From a virus (Duplodnaviria; Heunggongvirae; Uroviricota; Caudoviricetes): a stretch of 29,656 bases of DNA. Of this stretch, positions 3,355 to 22,994 are shown in pieces. The notes beneath the pieces were generated by a model, which was given only the letters and a program-made list of their open reading frames with translations, made no database searches and had not been told where the DNA came from. The stretch's first letter is position 1, and every line of letters begins with the position of its first letter. The position numbers were made by a program, and so were the translations under genes. The stretch is from the IMG/VR virus record IMGVR_UViG_2529293215_000019; one strand, 5' to 3'.

Positions 3355-3626
3355 GTATTCGTATCGAAATTGGCGAACGTTATGTCGTTACCAGTGACAG
3401 CTTTCAGTTTATTCTCCACGAGAAAAAGAGAGCGGAAAGCGGTAAAAACGCCGGCCAGGAATGGCTGGCGGTGGTTGGTTATTACCCGAAATTAAGCCAG
3501 CTCGTTTCCGGCCTGATGCATCACGATATTCTTACCGGAAGCGCAAAGTCTTTTGCTGATTTAAACGCGCAGGTTGAGCAACTCAGCAAGCGTTGTTCAG
3601 AGGCTTTTGGCTCATATGGCCGTTAA
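3351..3626 (+). CDS. hypothetical early protein (P2 orf83 position)
   Basis: 91-aa ORF; ATG at 3351 overlaps upstream stop (ATGA); 3' end overlaps the first ATG of gene A by 11 nt. Confidence 0.5.
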   Translation: MSIRIEIGERYVVTSDSFQFILHEKKRAESGKNAGQEWLAVVGYYPKLSQLVSGLMHHDILTGSAKSFADLNAQVEQLSKRCSEAFGSYGR

Positions 3627-5898
3627 AGCCTCCGGGCGTTTTGTCCCTCCGTCAGCATTTGCCGCAGGCACCGGTAAGACGTTTACCGGTGCTTATGCAT
3701 GGAACGCGCCACGCGAGGCCGTCGGGCGCGAAAGACCCCTTACACGTGACGAGATGCGTCAGGTGCAAGGTGTTTTATCCACGATTAACCGCCTGCCTTA
3801 CTTTTTGCGCTCGCTGTTTACTTCACGCTATGAATACATCCGGCGCAATAAAAGCCCGGTGCACGGGTTTTATTTCCTCACATCCACTTTTCAGCGTCGT
3901 TTATGGCCGCGCATTGAGCGTGTGAATCAGCGCCATGAAATGAACACCGACGCGTCGTTGCTGTTTCTGGCAGAGCGTGACCACTATGCGCGCCTGCCGG
4001 GAATGAATGACAAGGAGCTGAAAAAGTTTGCCGCCCGTATCTCATCGCAGCTTTTCATGATGTATGAGGAACTCAGCGATGCCTGGGTGGATGCACATGG
4101 CGAAAAAGAATCGCTGTTTACGGATGAGGCGCAGGCTCACCTCTATGGTCATGTTGCTGGCGCTGCACGTGCTTTCAATATTTCCCCGCTTTACTGGAAA
4201 AAATACCGTAAAGGACAGATGACCACGAGGCAGGCATATTCTGCCATTGCCCGTCTGTTTAACGATGAGTGGTGGACTCATCAGCTCAAAGGCCAGCGTA
4301 TGCGCTGGCATGAGGCGTTACTGATTGCTGTCGGGGAGGTCAATAAAGACCGTTCTCCTTATGCCAGTAAACATGCCATTCGTGATGTGCGTGCACGCCG
4401 CCAGGCAAATCTGGAATTTCTTAAATCGTGTGACCTTGAAAACAGGGAAACCGGCGAGCGCATCGACCTTATCAGTAAGGTGATAGGCAGTATTTCTAAT
4501 CCTGAAATTCGCCGGATGGAGCTGATGAACACCATTGCCGGTATTGAGCGTTACGCCGCAGCAGAGGGTGATGTGGGGATGTTTATCACGCTGACCGCGC
4601 CGTCAAAGTATCACCCGACACGTCAGGTCGGAAAAGGCGAAAGTAAAACCGTCCAGCTAAATCACGGCTGGAACGATGAGGCATTTAATCCAAAGGATGC
4701 GCAGCGATATCTCTGCCATATCTGGAGCCTGATGCGCACGGCATTCAAGGATAATGATTTACAGGTCTACGGTTTGCGTGTCGTCGAGCCACACCACGAC
4801 GGAACGCCGCACTGGCATATGATGCTTTTTTGTAATCCACGCCAGCGTAACCAGATTATCGAAATCATGCGTCGCTATGCGCTCAAAGAGGATGGCGACG
4901 AAAGAGGAGCCGCGCGAAACCGTTTTCAGGCAAAACACCTTAACCGGGGCGGTGCTGCGGGATATATCGCGAAATACATTTCAAAAAATATCGACGGCTA
5001 TGCACTGGATGGTCAGCTCGATAACGATACCGGTAAGCCGCTTAAAGATACTGCCGCGGCTGTTACCGCATGGGCGTCAACGTGGCGCATCCCGCAATTT
5101 AAAACGGTTGGACTGCCGACAATGGGGGCTTACCGTGAACTACGCAAATTGCCTCGCGGCGTCAGCATTGCTGATGAGTTTGACGAGCGCGTCGAGGCTG
5201 CACGCGCCGCTGCAGACAGTGGTGATTTTGCGTTGTATATCAGCGCGCAGGGCGGGGCAAATGTCCCGCGCGATTGCCAGACTGTCAGGGTCGCCCGTAG
5301 CCCGTCGGATGACGTTAACGAGTACGAGGAAGAAGTCGAGAGAGTGGTCGGCATTTACGCGCCGCATCTCGGCGCGCGTCATATTCATATCACCAGAACG
5401 ACGGACTGGCGCATTGTGCCGAAAGTTCCGGTCGTTGAGCCTTTGACTTTAAAAAGCGGCATCGCCGCGCCTCGGAGTCCTGTCAATAACTGTGGAAAGC
5501 TCATCGGTGGTGATACTTCGTTACCGGCTCCCACGCCTTCTGAGCACGCCGCAGCAGTGCTTAATCTGGTTGATGACGGTGTTATCGAATGGAATGACCC
5601 GGAGGTCGTGAGGGCGCTCAGGGGCGCATTAAAACACGGCCTGAGAAGACCAAACCGTCAGCAAAGAAACGGAAGCCCGTTAAAACCGCATGAAATAGCG
5701 CCATCGGCCAGACTGACCCGGTCGGAAAGAATGCAAATTACCCGTATCCGCGTTGACCTTGCTCAGAACGGTATCAGGCCGCAGCGATGGGAGCTTGAGG
5801 CGCTGGCGCGTGGTGCGACCGTAGATTACAACGGGAAAAAATTTACGTATCCGGTCGCTGATGAGTGGAGTTGGTTTTATTGTTATTCAGAGCAATAA
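3616..5898 (+). CDS. A: rolling-circle replication initiation endonuclease (P2 gpA-like)
   Basis: ORF of about 760 aa from the first ATG (3616; the track start at 3574 is TTG); contains a paired-tyrosine segment AGYIAKYISKNIDGY typical of rolling-circle initiators; position and size match P2 gene A. Confidence 0.88.
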   Translation: MAVKASGRFVPPSAFAAGTGKTFTGAYAWNAPREAVGRERPLTRDEMRQVQGVLSTINRLPYFLRSLFTSRYEYIRRNKSPVHGFYFLTSTFQRRLWPRIERVNQRHEMNTDASLLFLAERDHYARLPGMNDKELKKFAARISSQLFMMYEELSDAWVDAHGEKESLFTDEAQAHLYGHVAGAARAFNISPLYWKKYRKGQMTTRQAYSAIARLFNDEWWTHQLKGQRMRWHEALLIAVGEVNKDRSPYASKHAIRDVRARRQANLEFLKSCDLENRETGERIDLISKVIGSISNPEIRRMELMNTIAGIERYAAAEGDVGMFITLTAPSKYHPTRQVGKGESKTVQLNHGWNDEAFNPKDAQRYLCHIWSLMRTAFKDNDLQVYGLRVVEPHHDGTPHWHMMLFCNPRQRNQIIEIMRRYALKEDGDERGAARNRFQAKHLNRGGAAGYIAKYISKNIDGYALDGQLDNDTGKPLKDTAAAVTAWASTWRIPQFKTVGLPTMGAYRELRKLPRGVSIADEFDERVEAARAAADSGDFALYISAQGGANVPRDCQTVRVARSPSDDVNEYEEEVERVVGIYAPHLGARHIHITRTTDWRIVPKVPVVEPLTLKSGIAAPRSPVNNCGKLIGGDTSLPAPTPSEHAAAVLNLVDDGVIEWNDPEVVRALRGALKHGLRRPNRQQRNGSPLKPHEIAPSARLTRSERMQITRIRVDLAQNGIRPQRWELEALARGATVDYNGKKFTYPVADEWSWFYCYSEQ

Positions 5899-5970
5899 AC
5901 ATCTGATTTAATTTGTTGCATAATAGTAAAATTGCTGTTTATCTGCATGTGGTAACTATTGATAATTATG

Positions 5971-5998
5971 TTGCTAATAATGTGTGCAAATTTATACT
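5971..5998 (+). promoter_or_regulatory. candidate sigma70 promoter for the cargo gene
   Basis: TTGCTA (5971-5976), 16-bp spacer, TATACT (5993-5998), in a very AT-rich 116-bp leader; followed by AAGGTGA SD and ATG at 6015. Confidence 0.5.
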
Positions 5999-6014
5999 GA
6001 AAAAGGTGAAAACG

Positions 6015-7847
6015 ATGAATGATATCTTTGTTCTTACAAGGGAAGAGCTTGAAACACTAGATTATAGTGTTTTTATGCATATACCAGTTACATTTCATGC
6101 ACATAAAATAAAAAAATATCTGGATGGGATTGCTGAATCATCAGAAAACCCCAAAGAGAAAAAATTAGCATCTCTTTTTGGTATGCTATATAGTTTCAAT
6201 TTGCAAGTTGTTAACAACACTCCATCATTTGAACCCCAAATGATTTGGGGTAATAAAAGATCAATATTGCCTGAAGATTTTGATGAGCAGGTGAATGACT
6301 GTCTTTTATATGTTTCTCAAAAAATAACCAATCCATTTTTGTTATCAAGAATATATGATGTTGTTTGGTGTAATAATCGGAAAAATAAAGACGTGGCAAT
6401 TAAAGCAATTGATTCCTATGCTGAAATGCTAAATATAGCAATTGAAAGACTAATAATAAAAAACGAAAGCATGGATGAAAGTGATTTAAATTGCTTTATT
6501 TTTGCTCGTGATTATATTGCTAGGGCTTTGCACATTAATAAAATGGTCTACCCTAGAAAATCAGAAGGAAACATGGCGATTAAAAATGCCATTCATTCTC
6601 TTTATAGTATTCAAAATGAAAGATTAATCTTTGAAGGTTTCAATAATTTGACTTGGTTTATGGTGCGTGATTTTGATGGGTATAATCTGCAGTATGCGGA
6701 AAATGCTGAGAAGATGGCTGAGCAGCATAAAGATAAAAAATATTATGATGCTGTAAAATCACTTTATATGACAAGTGCAGTTATTTATGAAAAAAATGGT
6801 GAGTATGAACGTGCCAAGAGATGTAAACTGGCATCTGCAAATATTACTATTAAAGTTGCAACAGATCGACCTGATAATATGGGTAAGATCTCTTGGTTAA
6901 GAACAGCTATCTCTGAATTAAGACAGTACGGTGGTGATAGCCAACAGATAGAAGATTTAAAGGAACAACTTGCTAATTTGAGAGAAGAAGTAAGGAGTGA
7001 ATATGTCACTTTAAGCCATTCTATTGATATTAGTGACTTGGTTGCTGAAAGTGAAAAAAAACTGACGGGGCGTTCTTTGCCCGATATATTCAAAGTTTTA
7101 ATGCGTGAAACACCGATTGAAAATATTGAAAGCATGAGGGAGCAAGTTTTAAGATTATCAGAAAAAAGTTTATTCTCTAGTTTTGTTGGAACAGAAATTA
7201 ATGATGAGAGTGGGCGTAAGGTATATACAATCCCGCCGTTGGATAATAAAAAAGATATGAGTGATGATGTTGTTATTGATCAATATCTAAGAAATTTCGA
7301 GATTACTCATAAGATTTTTGTAAACGGTGTCTTTGAACCTGCTCGCTATGTACTTTCTCAAGAACATGGCTTGACGTTGTCAACATTCGTTAAATTAGTT
7401 ACAACTAGTCCAATTGTCAAGCCGGAGTTTAGGGAGATTTTTAATTTGGGCTTTTACAAATTATGGCAGGGAGATTACATCAGTGCAGCTTATCTTTTAA
7501 TACCACAAATGGAAGGTATGGTTCGTTATTATTATGAGCTTAGTGGAAAGGATGCTACTAGATATTTGGATAAGGGATTAGAGGAGTCAACAAGTATTTC
7601 TCAGCTTCTAGATAAATGCAGAGATGATTTGGAAAGTATCTTTTCTAAGAATCTTGTTTTAACTATCGATGTTCTTTTTAATAGAAAGAGTGGGGCAACC
7701 TTAAGACATAAATTAGCACATGGTAATTTATATACTAATGCTTGTTACGATGAAACAACGACATATGCATGCATCCTGATTTTCTTTCTGTGTGCTTATC
7801 CTCTCCTACCATATTTTGATACTGTATTTGAACAGGGCTCTGTTTGA
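6015..7847 (+). CDS. hypothetical 610-aa protein in the A-cos variable locus; candidate anti-phage defence / abortive-infection protein with C-terminal HEPN-like R-x4-H motif
   Basis: Long uninterrupted ORF; first ATG at 6015 with AAGGTGA SD (track start at 5913 is TTG); markedly AT-rich by eye versus GC-rich flanking phage genes; occupies the P2 tin/old position; RHKLAHG motif at 7704-7724. No family recognised from sequence alone. Confidence 0.8.
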   Translation: MNDIFVLTREELETLDYSVFMHIPVTFHAHKIKKYLDGIAESSENPKEKKLASLFGMLYSFNLQVVNNTPSFEPQMIWGNKRSILPEDFDEQVNDCLLYVSQKITNPFLLSRIYDVVWCNNRKNKDVAIKAIDSYAEMLNIAIERLIIKNESMDESDLNCFIFARDYIARALHINKMVYPRKSEGNMAIKNAIHSLYSIQNERLIFEGFNNLTWFMVRDFDGYNLQYAENAEKMAEQHKDKKYYDAVKSLYMTSAVIYEKNGEYERAKRCKLASANITIKVATDRPDNMGKISWLRTAISELRQYGGDSQQIEDLKEQLANLREEVRSEYVTLSHSIDISDLVAESEKKLTGRSLPDIFKVLMRETPIENIESMREQVLRLSEKSLFSSFVGTEINDESGRKVYTIPPLDNKKDMSDDVVIDQYLRNFEITHKIFVNGVFEPARYVLSQEHGLTLSTFVKLVTTSPIVKPEFREIFNLGFYKLWQGDYISAAYLLIPQMEGMVRYYYELSGKDATRYLDKGLEESTSISQLLDKCRDDLESIFSKNLVLTIDVLFNRKSGATLRHKLAHGNLYTNACYDETTTYACILIFFLCAYPLLPYFDTVFEQGSV

Positions 7848-7874
7848 TAACGTATACGTTGAGGCATAAAACCT

Positions 7875-7921
7875 ATGCATACTTAGCTGCATCAATTTGC
7901 ACGAGGTATTTCAGTATGCAT
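7875..7921 (+). terminator. candidate stem-loop downstream of the cargo gene
   Basis: 9-bp inverted repeat ATGCATACT (7875-7883) / AGTATGCAT (7913-7921) followed by TTTTCTG; the loop is long (29 nt), so terminator function is uncertain. Confidence 0.3.
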
Positions 7922-7998
7922 TTTCTGCGTAATAGTAGGGATTGCTTGGTTTGGTAGTTGTAATTCAACTGCATTCAAACCGACCCATGAAGCGGGCG

Positions 7999-8017
7999 GG
8001 CGAGGCGGGGAAAGCAC
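7999..8017. other. cos site (19-nt cohesive-end sequence of P2-type phages)
   Basis: GGCGAGGCGGGGAAAGCAC matches the P2 cohesive-end sequence as I recall it; lies between the end of the early/accessory region and portal gene Q, as expected. Confidence 0.7.
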
Positions 8018-8158
8018 TGCGCGCTGGCGGTGGTGCTGATTTTATTTTTTCAGCGTCTGAGCGCGTCGTGGCGGCGTTTAGATTTTGCGCCGGGGCGTTG
8101 CTGTGTCTGCGGGCTGTTTTGTGCGGTGGTGAGCGTGTGAGGGCGTGATGACTGGGTG

Positions 8159-8181
8159 TAAAAAAGCCGCCCGCAGGCGGC
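8159..8181 (-). terminator. rho-independent terminator of the P-Q operon
   Basis: Plus strand reads TAAAAAA-GCCGCC-CGCA-GGCGGC; on the minus strand this is a GC-rich 6-bp stem, 4-nt loop, then a U-run, immediately after the Q stop (8187). Confidence 0.65.
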
Positions 8182-8186
8182 GATGT

Positions 8187-9221
8187 TCAGCCGTTGTCAG
8201 TGTCCAGTGAGTAGTTTTTAAAGCGGATGACCTCCTGACCGAGCCAGCCGTTTATCTCGCGGATCCTGTCCTGTAACGGGATAAGCTCATTGCGGACAAA
8301 GACCTTTGCCACTTTCTCAATATCACCCAGCGACCCGACGTTCTCCGGCTTGCCGCCCATCAACTGAAAGGGGATGCGGTGCGCGTCCAGCAGGTCAGCG
8401 GCGCTGGCTTTTTTGATATTAAAAAAATCGTCCTTCGTTGCCACTTCACTGAGCGGGATAATTTTAATGCCGTCGGCTTTTCCCTGCGGGGCATAGAGAA
8501 ACAGATTTTTAAAGTTGTTGCGGCCTTTCGACTTGACCATGTTTTCGCGAAGCATTTCGATATCGTTGCGATCCTGCACGGCATCAGTGACGTACATGAT
8601 GTATCCGGCATGTGCGCCGTTTTCGTAATACTTGCGGCGGAACAGCGTGGCTGACTCATTCAGCCAGGCAGAGTTAAGGGCGCTGAGATATTCCGGCATG
8701 CCGTACAGCTCCTGATTAATATCCGGCTCCAGCAGATGAAACACGGAGCCGGGCGCGAAAGGTGTCGGCTCGTTGAAGGACGGCACCCACCAGTAAACAT
8801 CCTCCTCCACGCCACGGCGGGTATATTTTGCCGGTGAGGTTTCCAGTCTGATGACCTTACCGGTGGTGCTGTAACGCTTTTCCAGAAACGCATTACCGAA
8901 CACCAGAAAATCCAGCGCAAAGCGGCTGAAATCCTGCTGGGAAAGCCACGGATGCGGGATAAATGTCGAGGCCAGAATATTGCGTTTGACGTAAATCGGG
9001 GAGCTGTGATGCACGGCAGCACGCAGGCTTTTTGCCAGACCGGTAAAGCTGACCGGTGGCTCATACCATCTGCCGTTACTGATGCACTCGACGTAATCCA
9101 GAATGTCACGGCGGTCGAGTACCGGCACCGGCTCACCAAAGGTGAATGCCTCCATTTTCGGGGCGCTGGCGGTCATTTTTTTTGCCGCAGGTTGCGGTGT
9201 TTTCCCTTTTTTCTTGCTCAT
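8187..9221 (-). CDS. Q: portal protein (P2 gpQ-like)
   Basis: 344 aa, the length of P2 gpQ; ATG at 9221 overlaps the stop of upstream P (ATGA); located next to cos. Confidence 0.9.
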   Translation of the reverse strand: MSKKKGKTPQPAAKKMTASAPKMEAFTFGEPVPVLDRRDILDYVECISNGRWYEPPVSFTGLAKSLRAAVHHSSPIYVKRNILASTFIPHPWLSQQDFSRFALDFLVFGNAFLEKRYSTTGKVIRLETSPAKYTRRGVEEDVYWWVPSFNEPTPFAPGSVFHLLEPDINQELYGMPEYLSALNSAWLNESATLFRRKYYENGAHAGYIMYVTDAVQDRNDIEMLRENMVKSKGRNNFKNLFLYAPQGKADGIKIIPLSEVATKDDFFNIKKASAADLLDAHRIPFQLMGGKPENVGSLGDIEKVAKVFVRNELIPLQDRIREINGWLGQEVIRFKNYSLDTDNG

Positions 9222-10993
9222 CAGTAAAACTCCAGAATGGTGGATGTCAGCGGTGTGCTGATACCGGCGGTGAGTGGCTCATTTAACAGGGCGTGCATGG
9301 TCGCCCATGCGAGGTCGGCGTGGCTGGCTTCCTCGCTGCGGCTGGCCTCATAGGTGGCGCTGCGTCCGCTGCTGGTCATGGTCTTGCGGATAGCCATAAA
9401 CGAGCTGGTGATGTCGGTGGCGCTGACGTCATATTCCAGACAGCCACGACGGATAACGTCTTTTGCCTTGAGCACCATTGCGGTTTTCATTTCCGGCGTG
9501 TAGCGGATATCGCGCGCGGCGGGATAGAACGAGCGCACGAGCTGGAACACGCCGACACCGAGGCCGGTGGCATCAATACCGATGTATTCGACGTTATATT
9601 TTTCGGTGAGTTTGCGGATGGATTCCGCCTGGGTGGCAAAGTCCATACCTTTCCACTGGTGACGCTCAAGTATTCTGAATTTGCCACCGGCCACCACCGG
9701 CGGTGCCAGTACCACGCATCCGGCGCTGTCGCCACGGTGTGACGGGTCGTAACCAATCCATACCGGTCGGGAGCCGAACGGATTTGCGGCAAACGGCGCA
9801 TAGTCTTCCCATTCTTCCAGCGTGTCGACCATGCAGCGTTGCAGCTCCTCGAACGGGAATACCGATGCCTTGTCATCAACAAATTCACACATGAACAGGT
9901 TTTTAAAATCGTCGGCGCTGTTTTCGCGTTTAAGCTGCTCAATGTCGAACAATGTGCAGCCACCTTTCAGGGCGTCCTCAATGGTGACAATCTGCCGCCA
10001 CTGGCCGTCCGCACAGAGAAGCCCACCGGCAAGGGCGTTATGACTGACGTCGATTTCCACGCGTTCGGCGGCGCTGGCGCGTCCCCGGTTGAACAGTTCA
10101 CCTGACCAGAACGGGTAGGCGTCGTGCGCCAGCGTGGACGGGGTGGAGAAATAGGTCGAGCGCAGGTGACTCTGTGAGGCCATACCTGATGCCACCTTAC
10201 GCAGTACCTGAAAATTCGGGATCCAGAAAATCTCGTCGACGTACAGGTCGCCGTTATGGCTCTGTGCGGTGTTGGAGTTGGTGCCGAGAAAAATCAGTTT
10301 TGCGCCGTTATTGCCCAGGACAATCGGGTCACCGGTCAGGTCAACGTCAACCAGACGGGCAAAGGCGATGATGTATTCGCGGAACACATACGCCTGCGTT
10401 TTACTGGCCGACAGAAAAATCTGGTTATGACCGGTTTTCAGGGCGCGCAGCAGCGCCTCGCGGGAAAAATAAAACGTCGCGCCAATCTGGCGGGATTTCA
10501 GGATATCGCGGATGCGGTGCTCAAGCCCGGCGCGATACCAGTGCAACTGATATTCGAAAGACTGCTCAAAGAAAATCTGCTCCAGCTTTTCGATGGCCTC
10601 GTCACTGAAAAAATTCTTTTTCGGTTTGCGACGCCCGCCTTTGTTGCGGTTAGCGATGTTCGGATTAAGGTCTGCCTCGTTGCCGGTCTGGCTGTAGCGG
10701 TTTACCCGTGCCAGTCGTTCAATCTGGCGTCCGAGCAGGTCAATTTCCTTGAAGTCACCGCCGGTTTTCTGCGGTTTGATGATGAGCTGGGTCAGCCGCG
10801 CTTCCAGACTCATTTCGACACGGCTGATGGGGGCAACACTGTCCCAGCCGTCGCGCTGTTTCCAGCTCTGCACCGTCGGGCGTTTCATCTGCAACATGGC
10901 GGCAATCTGCGGCACGGAAAACCCCTGCCAGTACAGCAGCGCCGCCTGACGACGCGGGTCGTGTAAAAGAGTGGTGTCTGTGGTGATGGTCAT
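9221..10993 (-). CDS. P: terminase large (ATPase) subunit (P2 gpP-like)
   Basis: 590 aa from the first ATG (10993, preceded by GAGG; track start at 11023 is an alternative codon), the length of P2 gpP; N-terminal HTH-like region then ATPase/nuclease-sized body; upstream of the portal gene. Confidence 0.9.
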   Translation of the reverse strand: MTITTDTTLLHDPRRQAALLYWQGFSVPQIAAMLQMKRPTVQSWKQRDGWDSVAPISRVEMSLEARLTQLIIKPQKTGGDFKEIDLLGRQIERLARVNRYSQTGNEADLNPNIANRNKGGRRKPKKNFFSDEAIEKLEQIFFEQSFEYQLHWYRAGLEHRIRDILKSRQIGATFYFSREALLRALKTGHNQIFLSASKTQAYVFREYIIAFARLVDVDLTGDPIVLGNNGAKLIFLGTNSNTAQSHNGDLYVDEIFWIPNFQVLRKVASGMASQSHLRSTYFSTPSTLAHDAYPFWSGELFNRGRASAAERVEIDVSHNALAGGLLCADGQWRQIVTIEDALKGGCTLFDIEQLKRENSADDFKNLFMCEFVDDKASVFPFEELQRCMVDTLEEWEDYAPFAANPFGSRPVWIGYDPSHRGDSAGCVVLAPPVVAGGKFRILERHQWKGMDFATQAESIRKLTEKYNVEYIGIDATGLGVGVFQLVRSFYPAARDIRYTPEMKTAMVLKAKDVIRRGCLEYDVSATDITSSFMAIRKTMTSSGRSATYEASRSEEASHADLAWATMHALLNEPLTAGISTPLTSTILEFY

Positions 10994-11166
10994 GAATACC
11001 TCGCCGTGATGAATACACGGCAAGGCTACTGAGTCGCGCCCCGCGATTCGCTAAGGTGCTGTTGTGTCAGTGATAAGCCATCCGGGACTGATGGCGGAGG
11101 ATGCGCATCGTCGGGAAACTGATGCCGACATGTGACTCCTCTAATCACTATTCAGGACTCCTGACA
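10994..11166. promoter_or_regulatory. divergent late promoter region (P operon leftward, O operon rightward)
   Basis: 173-bp spacer between divergent P and O genes, the position of the Ogr-dependent late promoters in P2. I could not find a clean TGT-N12-ACA element by eye. Confidence 0.4.
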
Positions 11167-19326: not shown

Positions 19327-19930
19327 TTCGCGACTGCTGCCGACCGGCTCATCACCGCTTGAAGTCGCCGCCGCAAAAGCCTGTGCGGAAATTGAAAAAA
19401 CGCCGGTCAGTATTCGTGAGCTGTGGAACCCGGATACCTGTCCGGCAAATCTGCTGCCGTGGCTGGCGTGGTCATTTTCGGTTGACCGCTGGGATGATAA
19501 ATGGCCGGAAGCGACAAAACGCGCTGTTATCCGCGATGCGTATTTCATTCACTGCCATAAGGGTACTATAGGCGCAATCCGGCGTGTGGTGGAGCCGCTC
19601 GGCTATCTGATTGAGGTGAGGGAGTGGTGGCAGCTCAACGAGGAGCCGGGGACGTTCCGCATCGTTGTTGGCGTGCTTGAGCAGGGTATTACCGAGGAAA
19701 TGTATCAGGAGCTGGAGCGTCTCGTTGCTGATGCAAAACCGGCAAGCCGCCATCTGACGGGACTGGCTATCAGTTTAAGTACAACCGGCAACATTTTTGC
19801 CGGTGCGGGATGCTATCACGGTGACGCCCTGACGGTTTATCCCTACACCCCGGAGGCCATTATTGTCGGAGGGGATTATTTCCCGGCCTCGGCCATTCAT
19901 TTAATTGATAACCTGAGAGTAAACGCATGA
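19319..19930 (+). CDS. I: baseplate protein (P2 gpI-like)
   Basis: 203 aa; ATG at 19319 overlaps the J stop and the stop overlaps the H start; somewhat longer than the 176 aa I recall for P2 gpI. Confidence 0.8.
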   Translation: MSDSRLLPTGSSPLEVAAAKACAEIEKTPVSIRELWNPDTCPANLLPWLAWSFSVDRWDDKWPEATKRAVIRDAYFIHCHKGTIGAIRRVVEPLGYLIEVREWWQLNEEPGTFRIVVGVLEQGITEEMYQELERLVADAKPASRHLTGLAISLSTTGNIFAGAGCYHGDALTVYPYTPEAIIVGGDYFPASAIHLIDNLRVNA

Positions 19931-21120
19931 CAGTGAAATACTACGCCATTCTGACTAATCAGGGCGCAGCACGGCTGGCTAACGCGACGATGCTCGGCAG
20001 TAAGCTGAATCTGACGCAAATGGCCGTTGGTGATGCGAATGGTGTCTTGCCGACACCAGACCCGGCACAGACAAAACTGATTAACCAGAAACGCATCGCG
20101 CCGCTGAATCTTCTGAGTGTTGACCCGAACAACCAGAGCCAGATTATTGCGGAGCAAATCATCCCTGAGAACGAGGGTGGATTCTGGATCCGTGAGATTG
20201 GGCTTTATGATGATGAAGGCGTACTCATTGCGGTGGCGAACTGCCCGGAAACGTACAAACCGCAGTTGCAGGAAGGCAGTGGTCGTACCCAGACTATCCG
20301 CATGATTCTGGTTGTCACGAATACCGAAGCTATCACGCTGAAAATCGACCCGTCGGTGGTACTGGCGACCCGTAAATACGTGGATGATGAAGTCCTGGAA
20401 TTAAAGCTGTATGTGGATGACCAGATGAGAAACCACATTGCCGCACAGGATCCTCATACCCAGTATGCGCAGAAACATAATCCGACATTTACCGGAGAAC
20501 CAAAAGCGCCGACGCCTGCCGCAGGAAATAACACCACGCGGATTGCGACCACTGAGTTTGTTCAGGCCGCTATTACCGCTCTGATTAACGGTGCGCCAGC
20601 CACGCTGGACACACTGAAAGAAATTGCCGCAGCCATTAACAATGACCCGAAATTCAGTACCACCATTAACAATGCGCTGTCAGGTAAGCAGCCACTGGAT
20701 GAGACGCTGACTCATTTGAGTGGAAAGGATGTTGCCGGTCTTCTCGCATACCTTGGTTTGGGAGAAGCGGCAAAACGGAATGTAGGTAACGGGCAAAACC
20801 AAATTCCGGATATGGCGGCGTTTGCCAGTTCACTTTCATCAACGGGTTTTCAAAAACTTCCTTCAGGTCTGATTATTCAGTGGGGTATTGTCAGTGGAGC
20901 ATCAAACTATACGGTGACTTACCCGGTAACATTCCCAAATCGTTCACTTGCGCTGTTGGCTGTGCCACATACAACGTCGGTGGCTGGTATATCTGCAATG
21001 GGCATAGCGAACTGTTCTGATATCAGCAAATCACAGTTCTATATAATTGTTGGCGGTATATCTCAGGGAGAAATTGTCAAATATGAAAGATCCTGTTTTT
21101 GGGTAGCAATCGGTGTATAG
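19927..21120 (+). CDS. H: tail fibre protein (gpH-like), constant N-terminal part fused to invertible C-terminal variable part
   Basis: 397 aa; ATG at 19927; the last ~110 codons lie inside the invertible segment, downstream of the 34-bp repeat at 20753-20786. Confidence 0.8.
   Translation: MTVKYYAILTNQGAARLANATMLGSKLNLTQMAVGDANGVLPTPDPAQTKLINQKRIAPLNLLSVDPNNQSQIIAEQIIPENEGGFWIREIGLYDDEGVLIAVANCPETYKPQLQEGSGRTQTIRMILVVTNTEAITLKIDPSVVLATRKYVDDEVLELKLYVDDQMRNHIAAQDPHTQYAQKHNPTFTGEPKAPTPAAGNNTTRIATTEFVQAAITALINGAPATLDTLKEIAAAINNDPKFSTTINNALSGKQPLDETLTHLSGKDVAGLLAYLGLGEAAKRNVGNGQNQIPDMAAFASSLSSTGFQKLPSGLIIQWGIVSGASNYTVTYPVTFPNRSLALLAVPHTTSVAGISAMGIANCSDISKSQFYIIVGGISQGEIVKYERSCFWVAIGV
20753..20786. 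repeat. left 34-bp inverted repeat (invertase crossover site) inside gene H
   Basis: TTGGTTTGGGAGAAGCGGCAAAACGGAATGTAGG; the perfect reverse complement occurs at 22300-22333. Confidence 0.8.
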
Positions 21121-21128
21121 GTATATCT

Positions 21129-21524
21129 ATGATTTATTTCTCAAAATCGACTAATGGTTTTTTCTTTGATGGTATAAACAGCGACATGCCTGCTGACATT
21201 GTTGAGATAAGTACAGACTTATACAATGAATTAATTGCCGGACAGCAGGAAGGGGGTAAATTAATCACGTCAGATGAAAATGGTTTACCGGTACTGAAAT
21301 CTCCGGCGATTGATTATGTCGCACGTGCTGAAAATCAGCGAATGCAGTTACTTGCTCATGCCGATAATGTCACAGCTGACTGGCGGGTGGAATTAATGCT
21401 TGGTGATATCAGCAGTACAGATAAAGAAAAACTATCTGCCTGGATGGACTACAAAAAAGAAGTAAAAGCCGTCGACACTTCGACGGCTCCTGAGATTAGC
21501 TGGCCTGAGTTACCGGAGGTGTAG
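21129..21524 (+). CDS. tail fibre assembly protein (Tfa, orientation 1)
   Basis: 131 aa from the first ATG (21129), directly after the H stop; C-terminus VDTSTAPEISWPELPEV resembles the conserved Tfa C-terminal segment and is shared with the minus-strand copy. Confidence 0.7.
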   Translation: MIYFSKSTNGFFFDGINSDMPADIVEISTDLYNELIAGQQEGGKLITSDENGLPVLKSPAIDYVARAENQRMQLLAHADNVTADWRVELMLGDISSTDKEKLSAWMDYKKEVKAVDTSTAPEISWPELPEV

Positions 21525-21939
21525 GCCATTCAATATCTGGAGCACTGGAGGTATCCACCAGTTCCAGTGCGTCCAGGTAATCCAGCCACAAATTATATTG
21601 CGCCAGTTCCTCACCTTTCAGACGACCAATAGCTGCTTTGCCAGGCCATTGCTTACTGTTCATGTATTCGTTAGCCTGGTTAATTAGTAGCTGTCTTTCT
21701 GATTCAGTAATTTCAATAAGCTCTTCATGCGTGGGTGGAGGAATATCTGCCCACGCAGGCAGCCCATCATCTCCGGCAATACGGATTTTTCCTTGTGGCG
21801 GTTCAGCCATAAACTCACTGATAATATTTTGATTTACTTCCTTAGCGTCTGATAAATCCCATCCCTCTGATTTATATTTATCAATCATATCCACAGGGAA
21901 AAAAGCATTATGCCTTGCGCTATAAACATATTCGTTCAT
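21496..21939 (-). CDS. tail fibre assembly protein (Tfa', orientation 2)
   Basis: 147 aa from the ATG at 21939 (GGGTGA SD; track start at 21948 is GTG); C-terminus VDTSSAPDIEWPTPPV parallels the plus-strand Tfa; 3' end overlaps the plus-strand tfa by 29 bp. Confidence 0.65.
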   Translation of the reverse strand: MNEYVYSARHNAFFPVDMIDKYKSEGWDLSDAKEVNQNIISEFMAEPPQGKIRIAGDDGLPAWADIPPPTHEELIEITESERQLLINQANEYMNSKQWPGKAAIGRLKGEELAQYNLWLDYLDALELVDTSSAPDIEWPTPPVTQAS

Positions 21940-21959
21940 ATAAATCACCCTGAATAAAA

Positions 21960-22333
21960 TTACTCACCAACAGCCCACCAACTGTAATTCATCGATACTG
22001 TGGAGCTGGTTGATGCAGTTCTGTAAGCGGAATTAAAACCGGTTAGTGTTGGACCTTCTGCAGTCATCACGAATCCCCGTCCAGCGCCTAAAGGCGCACC
22101 ACCATCACCAGAATGGGTAAGCATGGCGCAGTCCACTTTTTTAGGAAAAGGGATGCTGAATGTAATTCTCATTGTTTGCGTCGATAATGTCGGCGTAATC
22201 GCACCACGACCATATTGCAGGATTTTCCCGTTGGGTAATTTCATCCATCCATCACCACTGGCAAAAGAGGTCATGTCCGGTATCTGATTTTCCCCCGTTC
22301 CTACATTCCGTTTTGCCGCTTCTCCCAAACCAA
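21960..22333 (-). other. alternative tail-fibre C-terminal coding segment (Hv'), without its own start; fused to H only after inversion
   Basis: Minus-strand reading frame through the right repeat encodes [24 protein letters not shown]..., paralleling the H segment [25 protein letters not shown]... after the left repeat; stop at 21960-21962. Confidence 0.65.
22300..22333. repeat. right 34-bp inverted repeat (invertase crossover site)
   Basis: Reverse complement of 22300-22333 is identical to 20753-20786. Confidence 0.8.
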
Positions 22334-22400
22334 CGTTTATGAAAATGCAGAGATAACGGGCAAGTGGCATCATCTCCGGTTTTTATTCAGGGGGATGCTC

Positions 22401-22994
22401 ATGCTTATTGGCTATGTACGCGTGTCGACAAATGACCAGAACACGGAATTGCAGCGTAACGCGCTGGAGTGCGCAGGATGCGAGCGGATTTTTGAGGATA
22501 AAATCAGCGGCACGAAGTCCGACCGACCGGGACTGAAAAAACTGCTCAGAACATTATCAGCAGGTGACACTCTGGTAGTCTGGAAGCTGGACAGGCTGGG
22601 GCGTAGTATGCGGCATCTGGTCATTCTGGTTGAGGAACTGCGCGAACGCGGCGTTAATTTTCGCAGCCTGACAGATGCTATTGATACCAGCACGCCGATG
22701 GGGCGTTTTTTCTTTCATGTGATGGGTGCCCTGGCTGAAATGGAACGAGAGCTCATTGTCGAGCGGACTCGGGCCGGGCTGGAAGCGGCCAGAGCCAAAG
22801 GTCGTATTGGTGGCAGACGTCCTAAACTCACCGCGAGTGAGTGGGAGCAGGCCGGGCGTTTGCTGGCTGCAGGGGAGTCACGTCAACGCGTGGCACTGAT
22901 TTTTGATATTGGTCTGTCCACGCTCTATAAAAAATTTCCCTCATCAGCGACAAAGAATAAATTGTGTCATCCCTTAGCCAACCGGGACAAATAG
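22401..22994 (+). CDS. serine recombinase DNA invertase (Gin/Cin/Pin/Hin family)
   Basis: N-terminus MLIGYVRVSTNDQNTELQRNAL with the catalytic-serine motif, and HTH-containing C-terminus LSTLYKK, closely resemble Mu Gin; AGGGGGA SD upstream of the ATG at 22401; adjacent to the invertible segment. Confidence 0.9.
   Translation: MLIGYVRVSTNDQNTELQRNALECAGCERIFEDKISGTKSDRPGLKKLLRTLSAGDTLVVWKLDRLGRSMRHLVILVEELRERGVNFRSLTDAIDTSTPMGRFFFHVMGALAEMERELIVERTRAGLEAARAKGRIGGRRPKLTASEWEQAGRLLAAGESRQRVALIFDIGLSTLYKKFPSSATKNKLCHPLANRDK

Follow-up and report, generated by a model that had tools for sequence, protein, structure and literature searches.

The AT-rich gene between gene A and cos of this P2-like prophage encodes a 610-residue protein that is most likely a self-inhibited RNase of a family combining DUF7380 with a DUF4209/HEPN domain. 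The gene is horizontally acquired DNA at the P2 A-Q defence hotspot. Fold and motif show that the C-terminal domain of the protein is a HEPN-fold domain with an intact Rx4H motif, which is predicted to confer RNase activity. On balance we slightly favour a one-protein sensor and HEPN RNase that is carried as cargo at the A-Q/cos hotspot and causes abortive infection, with a putative defence role, trigger and RNA target. What the analysis mainly contributes is a correction, in that the gene, far from being an undiscovered defence system, is a candidate already catalogued as PDC-S39 and as Rousset system #13.

The cargo gene in the slot between gene A and cos

An earlier note on this DNA had described a single long AT-rich ORF between gene A and cos/Q, placed as cargo at a recognised P2 hotspot, and both observations hold. 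Within the window, i.e., the whole stretch of 29,656 nucleotides analysed, homology to reference P2 ends at 5868 and restarts at 7955, as determined by BLAST against the P2 right-end/left-end junction. The same slot carries orf91, tin and old in reference P2. Gene A is retained on the left, and on the right the P2 cos 19-mer GGCGAGGCGGGGAAAGCAC matches the annotated cosL/cosR of NC_001895 exactly and is followed by gene Q (Table 1). The GC content of the island is 33.1%, with a GC3 of 0.25 for the cargo CDS, compared to 53.3% for both gene A and gene Q (~53% in the flanks) and 52.3% for the whole window. In a scan of 400-nt segments, all 17 within the island had a GC fraction of at most 0.358, and the minimum among 268 segments outside was 0.39. 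This atypical base composition marks the DNA as foreign in origin and counts in favour of a conflict-system context for the gene. Direct or inverted repeats of note were not found flanking the island.

Table 1 Features of the cargo island and its P2 flanks (positions refer to the window).
Feature	Position	Strand	Remarks
P2 gene A (replication endonuclease), left flank	3574..5898	+	RefSeq CDS start at 3616
AT-rich cargo island	5869..7954	.	33.1% GC; replaces orf91-tin-old of reference P2; BLAST against P2 junction and GC
Leader, gene A stop to cargo ATG, 116 nt	5899..6014	+	promoter-like hexamers, Shine-Dalgarno-like site
Cargo CDS, 610-aa DUF7380 + helical-repeat + HEPN (DUF4209) protein	6015..7847	+	PADLOC PDC-S39; PHROG 5183; WP_000997853.1
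N-terminal DUF7380 domain, aa 4-184	6024..6566	+	Pfam E 3.1e-39
Central all-alpha, TPR-like helical-repeat region, aa 185-424	6567..7286	+	
C-terminal HEPN-fold domain, aa 425-610	7287..7844	+	best-conserved part of the protein
HEPN Rx4-6H motif codons, R564-H-K-L-A-H569	7704..7721	+	family consensus R-[H/N]-x-x-x-H-G
3' untranslated tail of island	7848..7954	+	without P2 homology
P2 cos 19-nt cohesive-end sequence	7999..8017	+	backbone; hotspot boundary; exact match to NC_001895
P2 gene Q (portal), right flank	8187..9221	-	ORF list and RefSeq
P2 gene P, downstream backbone	9221..11023	-	ORF list and RefSeq

The coding sequence starts from the ATG at 6015, and its frame is open over 5913..7847; 611 stop-free codons would arise by chance at the base composition of the island with a probability of ~1e-23. 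WP_000997853.1 corresponds exactly to this CDS in the RefSeq annotation of E. coli O157:H7 F8092B, which is 100% identical to the window over 5899-7998. The gene occurs in about 1% of the complete E. coli genomes, with O157:H7 and S88, a neonatal-meningitis strain, among its carriers. In each of the 55 E. coli genomes with a match, the 2.1-kb query is covered to ≥97% at an identity of ≥95% (≥99% in 54 genomes), and the 20 copies listed include no annotated pseudogene. Homologues form 3,373 clusters at 50% identity from many bacterial phyla, with most best matches measuring 600-640 aa. An inert hitch-hiker, that is a decaying or functionless gene, would agree with the lack of a phenotype on record. 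Given the intact frame in AT-rich DNA, the near-complete copies in 55 of 55 genomes, the lack of pseudogenes among the 20 copies listed and a large family with conserved motifs, however, we consider this very unlikely.

The earlier note had further credited the gene with its own promoter-like leader. The leader does contain promoter-like hexamers (TTGCTA-16-TATACT at 5971..5998 and a further site at 5896..5924), and the ATG is preceded by a Shine-Dalgarno-like AGGTGA (6004..6009). The 12 promoter-like sites counted in the region, however, are no excess over the 9.7 ± 3.0 found in shuffled sequences. No promoter is conserved among the divergent alleles, whose leaders fail to align. The gene shares the orientation of the early operon (gene A), no terminator-like site was seen between the two genes, and no consensus terminator was found in the 3' tail. 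With promoter sites within the range of the shuffles and no terminator after gene A, a promoter of its own and transcription reading through from the early operon are both candidates only.

The same data bear on a role in the phage lytic programme or in prophage maintenance, in which read-through from gene A would yield an RNase of the early operon that shuts off host RNA, or a toxin-like addiction factor. Orientation, the 116-nt gap devoid of a terminator-like site and promoter-like sites at chance level fit such a role, and some cargo of the hotspot is known to serve non-defence purposes, namely a partition system and a cytolethal distending toxin (Rousset et al. 2022). Yet the family is widespread outside phages, mostly on chromosomes, e.g., in Alphaproteobacteria, Cyanobacteria and Chloroflexota, and it is found embedded in BREX, DISARM or R-M loci. 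The gene itself is non-essential, variable cargo that is present in 1 of 76 phage records and absent from most P2-like phages, and an addiction module would lack its antitoxin partner. We therefore regard this role as rather improbable.

Domain architecture and the HEPN motif

The author of the earlier note could name no family for the protein, called it undescribed and proposed profile searches. Such searches return confident matches. The N-terminal domain belongs to Pfam DUF7380 (PF24098), which it matches with 135.1 bits (cut-off 27); the same model is matched by all 42 diverse relatives, and the RefSeq product name is likewise DUF7380. Residues D88, R112, D115, W118, A131 and R170 occupy columns of this domain that are conserved family-wide. 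Over nearly its full length (about aa 7-598 of 610) the protein matches the PADLOC single-gene system PDC-S39 (PDLC05011, E 2.3e-84; PDLC05012, E 1.7e-83), and it also matches PHROG 5183. An NCBIfam search with the cargo protein gave no match.

Assignment of the C-terminal domain to Pfam DUF4209 (PF13910) comes through the relatives. The cargo protein alone scores 19.5 bits over aa 524-590, below the cut-off of 22.3 (E 1.1e-3), whereas 38 of 42 full-length relatives match the model at E <= 0.01, with a best E of 9.4e-13. The copy in phage vB_EcoM-569R9 (99.1% DNA identity) is annotated in GenBank as a DUF4209 protein.

The C-terminal domain was modelled with a pLDDT of 90.9 and adopts an all-alpha HEPN fold with a four-helix up-down core. 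No variation occurs at R564, H569 or G570 among 16 close relatives, among 42 distant relatives (20-37% identity in the motif alignment) or in a 36-sequence alignment of the domain. The residue after R564 is H or N throughout these alignments, as expected for a HEPN Rx4-6H motif with its polar residue (N, H or D), and E500 and R504 of an upstream helix are invariant as well. This strict invariance of R564, H569, E500 and R504 across divergent members is a signature of catalytic HEPN families. It speaks against a non-catalytic HEPN domain with a binding or regulatory function of the type seen in MtlR or sacsin, and we hold a scaffold or regulator of this kind to be distinctly improbable. Conservation of the effector (HEPN) domain exceeds the one of the putative sensor region.

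HEPN RNases are characterised by metal-independent endoribonuclease activity, with an active site that is usually composite across a dimer. No second HEPN domain was found in the chain, and an internal HEPN duplication was rejected, since hhalign comparisons of the N-terminal and of the middle region with the C-terminal domain both gave probabilities of <1%. A single HEPN domain per chain suggests that the protein dimerises. Searches of PDB sequences with the single protein or with a 42-sequence profile gave no meaningful match, the best being to designed helical proteins (E >= 0.3). The literature on DUF4209, DUF7380, PF13910, the WP accessions and ERMARD together with HEPN yielded no functional study and no biochemical data.

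Distribution, genomic context and an earlier test

Alleles at 32-100% identity occupy the A-Q slot in 23 of 30 IMG/VR contigs that carry a homologue, and alleles also fill this slot in an Enterobacter prophage and in P2-EC46 (ORF612). At least five divergent allelic lineages were captured in the cos-proximal hotspot of P2, and this repeated capture argues for usefulness to the prophage. The hotspot carries old/tin and several validated systems (Rousset et al. 2022).

In a genome-context scan with a 10-sequence alignment as query, each neighbour family was shared by at most 4 of the 59 loci. Within the island itself we found no Rfam match above noise (best E 0.32), no tandem repeats or repeat arrays and no small partner ORF. 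An RNA antitoxin or other ncRNA in the island was rejected on the Rfam and repeat results. Nor did the gene qualify as part of a toxin-antitoxin module (type II, type III or HEPN-MNT), as recurrent neighbour, Rfam, repeat and partner-ORF signals were all missing. The cargo gene is solitary, without a conserved partner.

Outside phages, a census of neighbours by Pfam and PADLOC gave heterogeneous mobile-element, defence and housekeeping genes and no usable enrichment statistic; with neighbours so mixed, enrichment in defence islands is not demonstrated. PDC families were predicted from their embedding in BREX, DISARM or type I R-M loci and are candidates only (Payne et al. 2024, 10.1101/2024.01.29.577857). 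Being a prediction from locus embedding, the PDC label is silent on the function of the cargo protein.

The protein has also been catalogued before as P2-hotspot system #13 'DUF4209', with 193 occurrences (Rousset et al. 2022). In the same study, the allele of E. coli S88 was cloned with its native promoter as pFR103 ('Putative HEPN') and challenged with eight phages in an MG1655 host; no anti-phage activity was reported, and pFR103 is listed in Table S2B among additional tested systems, not validated (Rousset et al. 2022). The cloning and plating experiment proposed in the earlier note had in effect been run in 2022. Protein, locus and flanks of this system are the same as those described here: the S88 protein is identical at 607 of 610 residues (E44G, R145K and D410N in S88), its leader carries two substitutions, at 5945 and 5952, and none of the differences falls in a conserved column. 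The sole test on record left the anti-phage activity of a near-identical allele unvalidated, which counts against a defence reading.

The negative outcome with eight phages only would fit a HEPN RNase that acts in other mobile-element conflicts, against superinfecting P2-like phages, plasmids or the P4 satellite, which shares the cos-adjacent hotspot; an RNase with such targets would go undetected with a standard panel of eight phages. Strong recurrence of the family is seen specifically in the P2 slot, some homologues adjoin relaxases, integrases and transposases, and the AC1 system, likewise cargo of the hotspot, acts against P2 relatives (Rousset et al. 2022). Direct support for any given target is lacking, however, and in mechanism this would be a variant of the main explanation rather than a true alternative; we assign it a minor though appreciable probability. 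Slightly less probable still, and hence tentative, is a narrowly triggered immune RNase whose large, previously uncharacterised N-terminal module senses a specific phage or satellite component. If this trigger came from temperate or P2/P4-type elements, which the 2022 panel did not include, the negative test would be accounted for.

Proposed mode of action and relation to known systems

The abortive-infection RNase that we favour would be a stand-alone, single-chain sensor-effector carried as exchangeable cargo at the A-Q/cos hotspot. As each chain holds one HEPN domain and HEPN RNases usually build their active site in a dimer, DUF7380 and the TPR-like helical region presumably hold the enzyme in an inactive state, whether monomeric or autoinhibited. 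These two less conserved regions would constitute the sensor. A cue specific to infection, most plausibly a phage protein binding to the helical region, may then promote dimerisation or opening, upon which the activated RNase would cleave tRNA, rRNA or mRNA. Translation would halt and the infection abort, protecting the lysogen population and the prophage. The suggestion of the earlier note, a candidate anti-phage or abortive-infection protein, is a reasonable one.

Among known systems, PDC-S39 is the protein's own family, with a full-length match, a single-gene arrangement and no structural difference. DUF4209 was described as a catalytically active HEPN family that is fused to TPR and occurs in R-M-related operons; bacterial members form the majority of DUF4209/C6orf70 and are associated with R-M loci (Anantharaman et al. 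2013). DUF4209/C6orf70 (ERMARD) proteins share with the cargo protein a C-terminal HEPN domain with Rx4H and fused TPR-like helical repeats. Unlike it, the eukaryotic members are ER-membrane proteins, and bacterial members such as the cargo protein, sub-threshold for DUF4209 by its own score, possess the additional N-terminal DUF7380.

Abortive infection by solo or fused HEPN proteins has validated precedents in HepS (PMC13043305), HEC-08, DS-11 and DS-38. HepS, a solo HEPN protein of the Salmonella prophage Gifsy-1, cleaves tRNA upon activation by a phage protein (PMC13043305). Like the cargo gene it is a prophage accessory gene without a partner and with a HEPN Rx4-6H site, and it is the best mechanistic analogue of the cargo protein. 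HepS homologues measure <250 aa and carry no extra domains, whereas the HEPN domain here makes up the last 186 of 610 aa; the cargo protein, with its additional domains, does not belong to the HepS family (STM14_3211 homologues). Phmmer and profile searches gave no sequence match to HepS (9OIK), provided that 9OIK is in the searched set, or to any other PDB chain. HEC-08 (DUF3644 HEPN with Zn ribbons), PD-T7-4, DS-38 and DS-11 (CBS and HEPN) likewise join a HEPN RNase and a presumed sensing module in one chain, and mutation of their Rx4-6H histidine abolishes defence. They differ from the cargo protein in HEPN family and accessory domains, and their PADLOC models do not match it.

Old and Tin of P2 occupy the same A-to-cos slot as lysogenic-conversion exclusion genes, but their proteins are unrelated to the cargo protein. 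Old is an ABC-ATPase with a TOPRIM nuclease, transcribed leftward from its own promoter, whereas the cargo gene is of HEPN type and runs rightward. The statement of the earlier note that the protein does not resemble Old is borne out: searches of Pfam, PADLOC and NCBIfam gave no ATPase, TOPRIM or Old match, and an OLD-family or Tin-like identity was rejected.

The protein represents a large, widespread HEPN family in which the catalytic dyad is strictly conserved, the N-terminal module is large and ERMARD is a relative from eukaryotes. Should the narrowly triggered sensor prove real, HEPN-based abortive infection would gain a sensor architecture of a new kind, one that has a eukaryotic descendant. 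Once found, the trigger would add one more sensor-RNase design to immunity and would explain a cargo gene of ~1% of complete E. coli genomes.

A foreign-composition gene in the P2 A-Q slot

An uninterrupted plus-strand reading frame (5913..7847) yields a 610-aa product from the ATG at 6015. The earlier note had described a long AT-rich ORF at the orf91/tin/old locus between the replication endonuclease gene A and cos. The feature is real and was correctly placed. RefSeq annotates the same CDS, and window positions 5899-7998 are 100% identical in E. coli O157:H7 str. F8092B, in whose genome the prophage adjoins pflA. In comparison with reference P2, the shared backbone stops at 5868 and restarts at 7955, and the cos sequence matches exactly. 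Gene A lies upstream, Q (portal) and P lie downstream, and in P2 the equivalent slot is occupied by orf91, tin and old.

The cargo island (5869..7954) is foreign in composition, with 33.1% GC and a GC3 of 0.25 for the CDS, in comparison to 53.3% for each of the genes A and Q and 52.3% for the whole window. All 400-nt windows inside the island reach at most 0.358 GC, whereas the lowest of the 268 outside shows 0.39. At island base composition, 611 codons without a stop have a probability of ~1e-23, and that the stretch is inert DNA is scarcely credible.

The gene had also been assigned its own promoter. Sigma-70-like hexamers (5971..5998) and an AGGTGA before the ATG do exist, but promoter-like sites are not more frequent than in shuffled sequence (12 versus 9.7 +/- 3.0). 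No terminator was found between A and the cargo gene. An RNase that serves the phage itself or prophage maintenance, transcribed by read-through out of the early operon, is an improbable explanation. Searches of the island turned up neither an Rfam family nor a repeat array, and no small ORF that might be a partner.

The start codon of gene A is a minor ambiguity: the mechanical ORF begins with TTG at 3574 (774 aa), the RefSeq gene at the equivalent of 3616 (760 aa), with a smaller overlap with the preceding 91-aa ORF. A TTG-started 68-aa ORF (7942-8148) spans cos, its counterpart in phage vB_EcoM-569R9 being named 'hypothetical protein'. The cohesive-end cut falls inside this ORF, and the surrounding backbone, upstream of the Q terminator, is GC-rich, conserved and non-coding; the call is therefore probably spurious. 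At 19927-22994 lies an invertible cassette for tail-fibre host range, with a GC content (0.40-0.43) that ranks second lowest among the patches of the window. Reference P2 is not known to have such a Gin/Cin-type switch.

Coordinates of the cargo gene, cos and the tail-fibre cassette
Feature	Position	Strand	Remarks
Cargo CDS	6015..7847	+	WP_000997853.1 'DUF7380 domain-containing protein'; RefSeq CDS in F8092B exactly matches
P2 cos 19-nt sequence	7999..8017		exact match
Fibre gene	19927..21120	+	Gp53-like_C tip at end
Inverted repeats, 89 nt	20741-20829 and 22257-22345		81% complementary
Caudo_TAP assembly genes	21099..21524 and 21496..21948	+ and -	facing each other
Alternative Gp53-like_C tip	21960..22373	opposite to fibre gene
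Serine invertase	22395..22994		Resolvase+HTH_7, E 8e-53

A C-terminal HEPN domain with an invariant catalytic dyad

Judged from its profile matches, the cargo protein is not an orphan, and the earlier view that it belongs to no nameable family is refuted. Pfam places DUF7380 at aa 4-184 (E 3e-39) and, below threshold, DUF4209 at aa 524-590. PDC-S39, a PADLOC phage defence candidate family, matches over the full length (E 2e-84). The PHROGs hit is family 5183, which has no assigned function. NCBIfam and PDB sequence searches gave no match. An exhaustive profile search returned 3,373 representative clusters, 630 of them at E <= 1e-30; the best matches mostly span 600-640 aa, and thus the whole architecture is conserved. 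Among 42 diverse relatives with 20-37% identity to the query, DUF7380 was present in all 42 and DUF4209 in 38 (best E 9e-13). DUF4209 (C6orf70/ERMARD family) was placed in the HEPN RNase superfamily by Anantharaman et al. 2013, who described it as mainly bacterial, TPR-fused and a component of R-M-related operons, and who predicted catalytic activity for it.

The catalytic-HEPN fold and motif are present in the C-terminal domain, the best conserved part of the protein (35.5% mean identity versus 23%). RHKLAH (R564..H569) agrees with the Rx4-6H motif, and the consensus across the family is R-[H/N]-x-x-x-H-G. Three alignments (of 16 close relatives, of 42 distant relatives and a 36-sequence domain alignment) show no variation at R564, H569 and G570, nor at E500 and R504 of an upstream helix. 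Next to this invariant dyad, a non-catalytic HEPN scaffold is a very unlikely reading, and the domain would act as an RNase. Each chain holds one HEPN domain; hhalign found no second copy in the N-terminal or middle region. The full-length AlphaFold2 model (pLDDT 79) is nearly all helical and matched only generic TPR/helical-repeat structures.

The last helix, YACILIFFLCAYPLLPYF (window 7761-7829, aa 583-605), is very hydrophobic, with a Kyte-Doolittle 19-residue mean of up to 1.78, a borderline value for a membrane-spanning segment. The model confidently places it in the core of the HEPN bundle; ERMARD, a eukaryotic DUF4209 protein, has however been described as membrane-anchored (Anantharaman et al. 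2013).

Distribution and neighbours of the family

Among 5,426 complete E. coli genomes, 55 carry the window allele, every copy being chromosomal, and it is also present in one deposited phage, vB_EcoM-569R9, annotated as 'DUF4209 domain-containing protein'. In phages the family is strikingly bound to the P2 A-Q slot: 30 IMG/VR contigs encode a homologue, and in 23 of these, all P2-like, A lies upstream of it and Q/P lie downstream. The alleles of these 23 show about 100%, 66%, 54-56%, 41% and 32-33% identity. The position thus recurs across divergent alleles. An Enterobacter prophage carries a 32% identical allele between A and Q, and AM157366 ('P2-EC46 ORF612', GenBank) is a 32.8% homologue at the same variable locus, whose N-terminus, MSEFD, is that of system #55 in the Rousset catalogue.

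Four P2-like contigs (L092, L095, L102 and L104) hold 2.2-3.6 kb of extra sequence between the homologue and Q, so that in these phages at least one other cargo system sits in the hotspot beside the HEPN gene. In seven other IMG/VR contigs of 40-94 kb (L108-L111, L113, L114 and L116), which encode homologues of 27-44% identity, P2-type A, Q and P genes are absent from the vicinity; phages unrelated to P2 thus carry the family as cargo, too.

Neighbours were surveyed at 59 chromosomal loci from Alpha- and Gammaproteobacteria, Cyanobacteria, Chloroflexota, Planctomycetota and others. No neighbour family recurred in more than four of these loci; the cargo gene is solitary, without a partner gene. 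The surroundings are mixed and comprise integrases, relaxases, transposases, P2 GPA, housekeeping genes and some defence genes (IetAS, PbeA, type I/IIG R-M, PDC-S31 and a STAND NTPase). In such company the same enzyme might be aimed at other mobile elements, e.g., P2 relatives, P4 or plasmids, which we regard as unlikely, though the foremost of the alternatives.

Earlier work and proposed role

The hotspot reasoning of the earlier note was sound. The A-Q hotspot has been catalogued systematically (Rousset et al. 2022, PMC9122126). The gene is, however, already known as a candidate and not undescribed as had been claimed: the same protein is system #13, 'DUF4209', with 193 occurrences in Table S5B of that study. 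PADLOC PDC families are '145 untested phage defence candidates', picked by their embedding in BREX/DISARM/type I R-M loci. No functional study of this protein family was found in the literature.

Cloning with the native promoter and plating on a phage panel, as the earlier note had proposed, already exists, with an outcome that is negative or unreported. In Table S2B, headed 'additional tested systems', plasmid pFR103 is entered as a one-gene 'Putative HEPN' system of the P2 locus, taken from E. coli S88. The insert and primers map to window ~5813-8208. Relative to the window, the S88 allele has the changes E44G, R145K and D410N and two substitutions in the leader; no conserved position is affected. 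Systems were carried, each under its native promoter, on a pSC101 plasmid in MG1655 and exposed to eight phages; validated ones entered Table S2A (pFR101 and pFR105 among them), the others Table S2B (pFR102-104 among them). The main text names DUF4238, a three-gene system and DprA+PRTase as the three additional working P2 systems. The authors caution that negatives may stem from missing expression or the small panel, and PARIS-1 required an inducible promoter (PMC9122126).

On balance, we lean toward a one-protein sensor-effector, an HEPN RNase causing abortive infection. The DUF7380 and TPR-like regions would keep the C-terminal HEPN RNase inactive until an infection cue promotes dimerisation or opening; RNA cleavage would then arrest translation and abort the infection. 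Validated HEPN-protein defences offer precedents for this design, i.e., HEC-08, DS-11, DS-38 and HepS, a solo HEPN protein of the Salmonella prophage Gifsy-1 (PMC13043305). Counting against the sensor-effector reading, the one test on record, pFR103, was non-validating. The family still merits attention for its size, its conservation and its uncharacterised N-terminal module.
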